Source: a virus
Taxonomy: Duplodnaviria > Caudoviricetes
DNA length: 36,926 nucleotides
Direction: 5' to 3' (one strand)
Virus record (IMG/VR): IMGVR_UViG_3300033067_002151
Coordinates: 1-36,926 of that record
Of the stretch, positions 30,656-31,762 are shown piece after piece (the first letter of the stretch is position 1; every line of letters starts with the position of its first letter). The position numbers and the translations under genes were made by a program. The notes below the pieces were generated by a model that was not told the DNA's origin, made no database searches, and worked only from the letters and a program-made list of their open reading frames with translations.

Positions 30656-31762
30656 TTGCAAACTTACTTTGTTTATAAATACAGAATATATCCTACTAAA
30701 AAGCAAGAAACATTACTTATTAAGCATTTTGGTTGTGTTCGTTTTGTATGGAATTATTTTTTAAACGAAAAAAAGGAGCATTATTTAAAAACAAAAGGTA
30801 ATTTAACTTATTATGATAATTCAAAACAACTAACATTATTAAAAAAAGAAAAAGAATGGTTAAAAGAGTGTAATTCTCAAAGTTTACAAGTTAGCTTAAA
30901 GCACCTTGATAATGCCTATAAAATGTTTTTTAGAAAAACACATAATTTTCCTAATTTTAAAAGTAAGGATGCTAAACAATCTTTTACAATTCCACAATAT
31001 TTTAAATTAAAAGATAAAAAAATACATTTTTTTAAATTTAAAGAAGGTATAAAGGTTAAAGAACATAGAAAATTAGAAGGTAAATTTGTAATAGCTACAT
31101 TATCAAGAACTACTACCAACAAATATTACATTTCTATCACTGTAGAAAAAGAAATCAAACCAGTATCTTTAACAGATAAAACTGTAGGTATAGATTTAGG
31201 AATCAAAGATTTGATTATTTGTTCTGATGGTAAAAAATATCAGAATATTAAACCATTATCTAGCTTAGAGAATAAATTAAAATATAAGCAAAAACAATTA
31301 TCTAAAAAAGTAAAAGGGAGTAACAACAGAAAGAAAGCTAGACACAAAGTAGCTATAATTCATAAAAAAATAAAAAATACTAGAAATGATTATATTCATA
31401 AAATAACTAAAACAATTGTTAACGAAAACCAAGTAATAATTGTAGAAGATTTAAACGTTAAAGGTATGATGCAGAATCATAAATTAGCAAAAGCGATTAG
31501 TGATGTATCTTGGCATGAAATATATAGACAACTTGAATATAAAAGTAAGTGGAATAATAGAATTTATCATATAATAGATAGGTTCTTCCCTTCTAGTAAG
31601 ATGTGCAGTTCTTGTCATTTTGTTAATGACGAATTAGCATTAAAAGATAGAAATTGGAATTGTCCAAATTGTAACACTAAATTAGACCGAGATTTAAACG
31701 CATCAATAAATATATTAAATCAAGGTTTAAATAACATACAAGCGGCAGGGACTGTCGTATAA
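30656..31762 (+). CDS. tnpB: IS200/IS605-family RNA-guided endonuclease TnpB
   Basis: YKYRIYPT...FGCVRFVWN; RuvC D (GIDLG), E (VEDL) and D (DRDLNA) are all present; CSSC/CPNC zinc finger; TTG start. Confidence 0.95.
   Translation: MQTYFVYKYRIYPTKKQETLLIKHFGCVRFVWNYFLNEKKEHYLKTKGNLTYYDNSKQLTLLKKEKEWLKECNSQSLQVSLKHLDNAYKMFFRKTHNFPNFKSKDAKQSFTIPQYFKLKDKKIHFFKFKEGIKVKEHRKLEGKFVIATLSRTTTNKYYISITVEKEIKPVSLTDKTVGIDLGIKDLIICSDGKKYQNIKPLSSLENKLKYKQKQLSKKVKGSNNRKKARHKVAIIHKKIKNTRNDYIHKITKTIVNENQVIIVEDLNVKGMMQNHKLAKAISDVSWHEIYRQLEYKSKWNNRIYHIIDRFFPSSKMCSSCHFVNDELALKDRNWNCPNCNTKLDRDLNASINILNQGLNNIQAAGTVV

Follow-up and report, generated by a model that had tools for sequence, protein, structure and literature searches.

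A selected hairpin within tnpB coding sequences recurs at the 5' end of a gene-less phage omegaRNA and may be a tag for capture of TnpB precursor RNAs

We have described here a hairpin that lies within the coding sequence of a phage-borne tnpB gene and recurs at the 5' end of a gene-less (orphan) omegaRNA of the same phage, the window analysed being the whole virus record of 36,926 nucleotides (36.9 kb). Judged by codon choice across homologues, its loop GARAAYCAA is under selection below the protein level, and sequence comparison indicates that the hairpin is restricted to the sense strand, confined to coding sequence and movable between codons and frames, and that its retention in gene-less elements is recurrent but not universal. 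It is thus a real selected element, apparently undescribed, attached to a known kind of system, the TnpB of IS200/IS605 elements. The explanation that we prefer, with a probability of roughly 0.45, is that it is a portable accessory docking tag with which TnpB captures and processes its own precursor RNA, and which gene-less guides have copied.

The phage and its TnpB locus

The record is 66% complete, and its genes include those for terminase, ParA, ERF/YqaJ and ProQ; a single weak match to a Ca. Megaira plasmid suggests that the host is likely a Rickettsiales symbiont. The accessory cargo includes an MFS transporter, an outer-membrane beta-barrel and, on inspection by eye, genes of toxin-antitoxin type and an ankyrin-like protein (13572-14945, 33272-33970, 25925-26389, 27059-27599 and 11421-11780). 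AT-rich repeated and inverted sequences that recur in two intergenic regions, close to parA and the early genes (8312-8400 and 24160-24299), are possibly operator or partition sites.

The tnpB gene (30656-31762, plus strand, 368 residues) encodes the sole TnpB of the window and has a complete RuvC D-E-D triad, with D180, E264 and D346 in the motifs GIDLG, VEDL and DRDLN. The protein scores 344 bits against NF040570 (cut-off 100) and 419.9 bits against NF038281, slightly below the cut-off of 425, matches Pfam PF01385, PF07282 and PF12323, and aligns to ISDra2 TnpB with an E value of 2e-67. No Y1 transposase (TnpA, PF01797) was found in the phage contig, 66% complete as it is, and no left-end hairpin was seen in the 21 nt between proQ and tnpB. 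The ProQ/FinO-domain gene (30203-30634) itself ends in a copy of the loop, GAAAACCAA, at 30618, which lacks a good stem; with one of three closing pairs formed, it was taken as a chance occurrence.

The cis omegaRNA core (31742-31826, plus strand, 85 nt) overlaps the tnpB stop codon, ends in GTTCAC and aligns with 20 other omegaRNA cores. Its 3' hairpin is shrunk to CCC-TTTT-GGG, and it is the shortest among the cores extracted for comparison; a search of Rfam gave no match. As far as the accessible text of the two reports goes, it shares with the ISDra2 omegaRNA (PMC10097598) and with those of a survey of 59 orthologues (PMC10278001) a 5' stem-loop, a central stem, a 3' hairpin, a TCAC end and the overlap with the end of the open reading frame. 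The predicted cis guide (31827-31842, plus strand, 16 nt), placed by the scaffold end, has no target within the window and no TTTWT-flanked match in the viral contigs.

Two hairpins with one loop

The coding-sequence hairpin occupies 31412-31443 (plus strand), and its 9-nt loop GAAAACCAA at 31424-31432 corresponds to codons E257-N258-Q259, with the RuvC-II glutamate codon (31445-31447) a short way 3' of it. The orphan hairpin (6541-6561, minus strand) has a perfect 6-bp stem and the loop GAAAATCAA at 6555-6547. When both strands of the window were searched for the 14-mer AACGAAAAYCAAGT with up to two mismatches, only the sites at 31421 (plus) and 6558 (minus) were found. Both hairpins, which the preliminary description had picked out from the sequence of this phage, are present as it gave them, and both fold better than shuffled sequence, with z = -3.40 for the tnpB hairpin (1 of 200 shuffles as good) and z = -3.42 for the orphan hairpin (3 of 200). 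The former ends 297 nt 5' of the region homologous to the orphan core, and the latter lies 18 nt from the start of that homology and 20 nt from the first core stem. The loop by itself is not rare, since the window, which is AT-rich, contains five copies of the bare 9-mer GARAAYCAA; all three closing pairs form only in the orphan copy, and two of three form in the tnpB copy and in an unrelated copy at 9366 (minus). The significance of the hairpin therefore rests on comparative data, which are strong.

The orphan guide and the allele that it replaces

The orphan runs from 6562 to 6420 (minus strand), with a predicted scaffold of 127 nt. It is preceded by a putative sigma70-type promoter (6569-6596, minus strand; TTTACA-16-TATAAT) with a predicted +1 near 6562, of which the -35 box is resident, being common to the empty allele described below, and the -10 box is new. 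The site has 11 of 12 matches, but the promoter scan alone is weak evidence, as two sites were found against 1.6 in shuffles. The 5' hairpin is followed by an AT-rich linker (6521-6540) partly homologous to tnpB 31718-31741, by a core (6436-6520) near-identical to the cis core, with 95% identity to the tnpB 3' end over 98 nt, and by a 16-nt guide (6420-6435). A resident AT-rich inverted repeat with a T-run (6379-6419), read from the sequence rather than called by the terminator scan, is the likely terminator; all of these lie on the minus strand.

Two sister phages, L343 and L344, in which the neighbouring protein is 98% identical, carry an empty allele consisting of TTTAT followed by exactly the guide sequence. 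At the orphan, 38 nt of this allele including the TAM have been exchanged for 144 nt that contain no left end, and this comparison bears out the earlier view of the orphan as an element that has kept the hairpin and lacks a left end. The guide has no target within the window, and the phage's own orphan copy, preceded by TTCAC and not TTTAT, should be safe from cutting. A 15-nt match to the core in L343/L344 falls within a structural gene and was dismissed as chance. We note separately that the empty allele (L343/L344:2380-2500, minus strand) has a promoter-like box of its own, TTTACA-16-TATTCT, and the same terminator; it may therefore be the source of a small antisense RNA whose place the orphan took.

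The orphan is like the PATE-like or standalone omegaRNAs of IS200/IS605 (Meers et al., 10.1101/2023.03.14.532601; Altae-Tran et al., PMC10691335), as these are presented in the accessible parts of the two papers, in having no open reading frame, a full core, and a flank-derived guide that matches a TAM-flanked empty site; those RNAs need TnpB in trans, and we propose the same for the orphan. It is unlike PATE in that the left end, the TAM and 33 further bases have been lost, so that there is no clean insertion after a TAM, and in that its -35 box is resident and its 5' end is formed by a hairpin from the middle of tnpB; no such hairpin is described for these RNAs in the same parts of the two papers (10.1101/2023.03.14.532601; PMC10691335). 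The orphan would be what is left of an old insertion, namely promoter, hairpin and core, and could still spread by cutting and recombination.

It is present in seven RNA-labelled runs, as contigs that run across genes and therefore permit no reading of expression or of RNA ends. In two runs (X4 and X20), contigs keep the orphan and miss tnpB, with 30638 joined to 31831, and guide and nuclease therefore segregate. The joined site has three seed mismatches to the cis guide and no TTTAT, and so is not a clean empty site.

Selection on loop and stem

Viral contigs scanned with a codon-degenerate pattern yielded 113 loci and, with the window, 114 matches, of which 91 are distinct and fall into 57 clusters at 85% nucleotide identity. 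Q259 is encoded by CAA in all 57 clusters, against an expectation of 0.65 from the same genes (P about 1e-12), and N258 by AAC in 53 of 57, against 0.38 (P about 1e-20). The bias holds against base composition, since CAA is used in 20 of 20 genes above 40% GC (background there 134/295) and AAC in 15 of 18 genes below 30% GC (background 98/475). These are the two extreme values among 26 nearby two-codon columns; D265 and N267 are mildly biased, and codon choice at E257 is unbiased. The three closing pairs are paired in 84.8% of cells, against at most 55% in slid controls, with double changes in 52 of 171 cells; none of 500 shuffles, which ignore relatedness, was as high. The flanking codons co-change as amino acids (N/V, D/V, S/T, R/T, Q/L, K/F and H/V). 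The nucleotide-level constraint at the ENQV codons that the preliminary description had proposed is thus found across homologues both as synonymous bias and as stem covariation, and the excess nucleotide conservation on which it had made its case depend is present.

A scan not conditioned on ENQ found the motif in 25 of 56 clusters, most of the others having xYD without such a hairpin, from which it follows that the TnpB protein does not need ENQ. On a quick tree that holds 80 of the 101 clusters described below, ENQ is scattered. Chance or protein constraint as the sole source of the hairpin might be argued from the five loop copies in the AT-rich window and from the use of ENQ to select one of the data sets. 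We regard this as very improbable, given the synonymous bias, the double changes across amino-acid changes and the relocation of the hairpin into another frame, for which protein constraint cannot be the source.

Other structures occur at these codons. In a different tnpB clade, that of cyanobacteria (L441-L525), the same codons (SND, SHD or ANA; AAC in 25 of 41) fold into a three-way junction that includes a hairpin tipped with AAC. Several cyanobacterial mini-elements keep this AAC-hairpin region, and others have a separate structured leader with GGTAAAA in common. In the tnpB genes of L458 and L522, an in-frame insertion of a GC-rich palindrome lies exactly at the hairpin codons.

Relocation of the hairpin within the gene

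Among 101 tnpB clusters, the motif is at codon 257 in 57 and absent from that position in 44. In 10 of the 44 non-ENQ clusters the same loop is found elsewhere with all three closing pairs, in frames 0 and 2, at sites near codons 150, 164-166, 171, 193, 196, 212 and 226; none of 300 shuffles reached ten such sites, and the controls gave 0 (antisense), 0.16 (codon-order shuffle) and 0.66 (synonymous shuffle). With at least two closing pairs required, the number is 14 of 44, and for the other 30 no such site was found in the aligned part, which is incomplete in some. ENQ genes, with their own site removed, have a second hairpin in two of 57 cases. Outside the gene such sites are scarce, with one in 85 kb of flanking sequence and one in 34.6 kb of upstream sequence. 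An Oscillochloris tnpB has RHFD at position 257 and carries the loop about 45 nt downstream in an A-K-T-K frame, and mini-elements of the same genome have retained exactly that KTK-frame piece.

Relocation across positions and frames is easier to reconcile with a portable signal than with a fixed domain of the scaffold. One candidate reader is a host factor, such as an RNA chaperone, a nuclease or an elongation factor, whose binding would stabilise the precursor or allow transcription to continue through to the guide. A sense-only signal that is independent of position and frame is what such a factor might recognise, the hairpin lies at the predicted 5' end of several mini-elements, and a ProQ/FinO gene is situated 21 nt upstream of this tnpB. 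We think it unlikely nonetheless, as the same loop is found in hosts from many phyla, proQ is retained in strains that lack this tnpB, and a full-text literature search for the loop sequence gave nothing relevant. We know of no host reader shared across those phyla.

Retention in gene-less elements

A pattern search that required the loop to stand 8-38 nt 5' of a core found 16 viral and 90 genomic loci, a sample that is biased by design. Scoring with a core model (nhmmer) built from eight tnpB-linked cores placed 34 loci at 4 bits or above, one of them a copy of the orphan of the window. All three closing pairs are present at 24 of these 34 loci and a C-G closing pair at 30, compared with 5 and 4, respectively, of 72 low-scoring controls; the core model missed some real cores, recognised by eye (L142, L195 and L159), and the controls therefore hold a few true ones. 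No tnpB was found in the flanks of any of the 34 scored cores. Together with L142, they represent 11 core lineages, whose sources are Thermotogota, Meiothermus, Oscillochloris, Poribacteria, cyanobacteria, Acidobacteriota, Bacillota and phages. In four of these lineages the loop follows the end of a -10 box at a distance of 12-18 nt, and our script found none within 18 nt of the loop in the other seven. A corresponding internal promoter before the hairpin in the open reading frame gave no clear signal (9 of 54, versus 21 of 216 control windows).

An unbiased covariance-model sample, in which 120 loci were examined out of several hundred matches and the motif was accepted with at least two pairs, with A allowed at the first loop position, and within 300 nt, gave the motif in three of 33 non-redundant gene-less cores (five of 35 including two seeds) and in 14 of 37 full genes; there were no antisense occurrences. 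Many other gene-less elements hold the hairpin together with a left end, and L434 has both transposon ends and no hairpin. In L208 (2300-2700, minus strand), a Thermotogota mini-element follows TTTAT between two identical tRNA-like repeats, and its three copies have different guides.

Elements of this kind bear on a second explanation, in which the hairpin is a top-strand single-stranded DNA signal for TnpA-mediated excision or integration that mini-elements keep in order to stay mobile. The sense strand is the transposed top strand, and many hairpin-bearing mini-elements have both ends and several copies, the three Thermotogota copies after TTTAT with differing flanks being an example. G-U and A-C combinations are equally frequent in the closing pairs (10 and 10), and the pairing therefore cannot separate RNA from top-strand single-stranded DNA. 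We nevertheless find this explanation quite improbable. The hairpin is confined to coding sequence, the upstream regions holding just the one site noted above; the orphan has a perfect stem despite having no left end and a reduced right-end hairpin; there is no TnpA in the contig; and L434 lacks the hairpin in spite of having both ends.

The converse arrangement, a gene whose cis RNA is incomplete, is seen in L001 (3001-4200) and L397 (640-1900, minus strand), which encode close TnpB homologues (76%) with their own promoter and a long inverted repeat before the start codon. Both keep the hairpin, with a compensated outer stem in L001, and their cis omegaRNA is cut off after GAACCAAGAA and therefore has no guide. 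These TnpBs may rely on a trans guide, although none was found for L001, whose RNA lacks a 3' end, in its own contig (48% complete).

The hairpin and the active guide

The preliminary description saw in the hairpin an essential distal loop of a bipartite native omegaRNA of over 400 nt, and in the orphan a naturally minimised scaffold. Published data on related proteins speak against this. In Supplementary File S2 of the survey by Nety et al. 2023 (PMC10278001), six orthologues (11, 23, 26, 66, 67 and 68) have ENQ before RuvC-II and all are active. Five of them cut with scaffolds that start downstream of the hairpin, so the loop does not appear to be essential, and the mature scaffolds as mapped there are 102 nt (orthologue 67) and 152 nt (orthologue 11), not over 400 nt. 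Orthologue 66 is listed as a recoded sequence with CAG, and is active; TTTAT is the measured TAM of orthologues 23 and 67. We note that TnpB mRNA was present in the same in vitro reactions as they are described there, and supply of the hairpin in trans is therefore possible. Nor does the orphan appear to be minimised, its predicted 127 nt exceeding the 85 nt of the cis core.

A related explanation makes the hairpin one structural segment of a bipartite guide; in the active complex it would dock on TnpB or on the core, and it would be needed, or strongly stimulatory, in vivo. Its retention directly 5' of the core in gene-less elements is consistent with this, the loop would fit a GNRA-like pattern with a free R, the invariant UGG of the core could pair with CCA of the loop, and processed omegaRNAs of up to 466 nt are reported in the accessible part of PMC10278001. 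The activity of the five ENQ orthologues without the hairpin, the short mature RNAs and the activity of the CAG-recoded orthologue count against it, as do a hairpin-core distance that ranges from about 10 to about 700 nt and a core stem that varies while the loop does not, and we consider it rather unlikely. Pairing of the loop with the core stem CTTG/CAAG was rejected as a general rule for the same reason, the stem being of nine types in 30 cores; loop and core showed no covariation, with at most 3-5 bp possible.

In the sections of PMC10097598 and PMC10278001 that we cite, upstream sequence is dispensable for cleavage with the known TnpB omegaRNAs. The hairpin described here differs from these in lying about 300 nt outside the mature RNA, and ISDra2 TnpB has REYE at the ENQ position. 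A further likeness is the cis-inhibitory mRNA region of AmaTnpB (nt 825-875; PMC10278001), also a functional RNA feature within the coding sequence adjoining the RuvC-II codon. It differs in clade and sequence, has no ENQ, is a single case and is proposed to pair with the omegaRNA, and neither covariation nor retention in mini-elements is reported for it in the accessible text of that paper (PMC10278001).

By this precedent, the hairpin could be a brake that sequesters the guide or pauses translation, keeping TnpB from cutting its own mRNA or DNA too early. The AmaTnpB region inhibits cleavage, according to the same part of that report (PMC10278001), and a self-processing nuclease such as TnpB may need such control. 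Still, AmaTnpB lacks an ENQ motif there, an untranslated guide gains little by keeping a brake, and covariation of loop and core is absent; we see little chance that the hairpin is a brake.

A tag for capture of precursor RNA

We favor the capture tag because TnpB is common to all of the hosts and processes its own mRNA, as described in the part of PMC10278001 used here. A signal that is specific in sequence and structure, sense-only, within the transcript and movable, that occurs about once in each gene, can be dispensed with in vitro and has been copied by parasites that encode no protein, has the behaviour of a binding site. The hairpin would form part of the tnpB coding sequence, with roughly one copy in each gene of the clade, and would act on the precursor RNA, where it would help TnpB to find and capture its own transcript and to process it. 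Once the RNA is loaded, TnpB would remove the 5' part, and the mature guide of about 100 nt would no longer contain the hairpin. The orphan and other gene-less guides would copy the tag to borrow TnpB in trans. We infer that the orphan promoter is used for transcription, that TnpB reads the signal and does so in RNA form, and that TnpB with the orphan RNA would cut sister phages carrying the empty allele and convert them by recombination.

Several points weigh against the capture tag, namely that the motif is present in just three of 33 gene-less cores and 14 of 37 full genes of the unbiased sample, that 30 of 44 non-ENQ clusters show no site with two or more pairs in the aligned part, that the closing pairs do not discriminate RNA from single-stranded DNA, that seven of 11 lineages gave no -10 box close to the loop, that strains with the orphan lack this tnpB, and that ENQ TnpBs cut without the hairpin in vitro, on the partial evidence of PMC10278001. 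With somewhat more reserve than the capture tag itself, we entertain a fuller version in which TnpB transcripts would carry a portable zip code, read in cis for loading, which would have disappeared and arisen anew at many codons and in two frames, with the ENQ and KTK protein motifs as its by-products. The code would have been stolen by gene-less guides, and here an end-less guide would drive its allele through co-infecting sister phages.

There are parallels in other mobile elements. Group II introns have the stem-loop of domain IVa, and LINEs have tails that SINEs copy; such a high-affinity feature of an element's own RNA attracts the protein of that element, and parasites without coding capacity retain it. 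The tnpB hairpin may work likewise, by analogy only, as the proteins and sequences are unrelated. A description of the hairpin was not found in a full-text literature search, with most subscription papers outside its reach. Codon-optimised TnpB genes and trimmed guides would erase the signal, and it would therefore have been missed.

TnpB is very abundant, is the ancestor of Cas12 and is a compact editing tool, and these observations touch on how it picks its guide precursor in the cell. A selected, movable signal in the coding sequence makes precursor choice testable by one-base synonymous changes, and restoring the hairpin to recoded tnpB genes or trimmed guides could change loading. A conserved protein motif, ENQ, would find its explanation as an RNA effect, and the orphan would be a guide acting in trans against an allele segregating in the sister phages.
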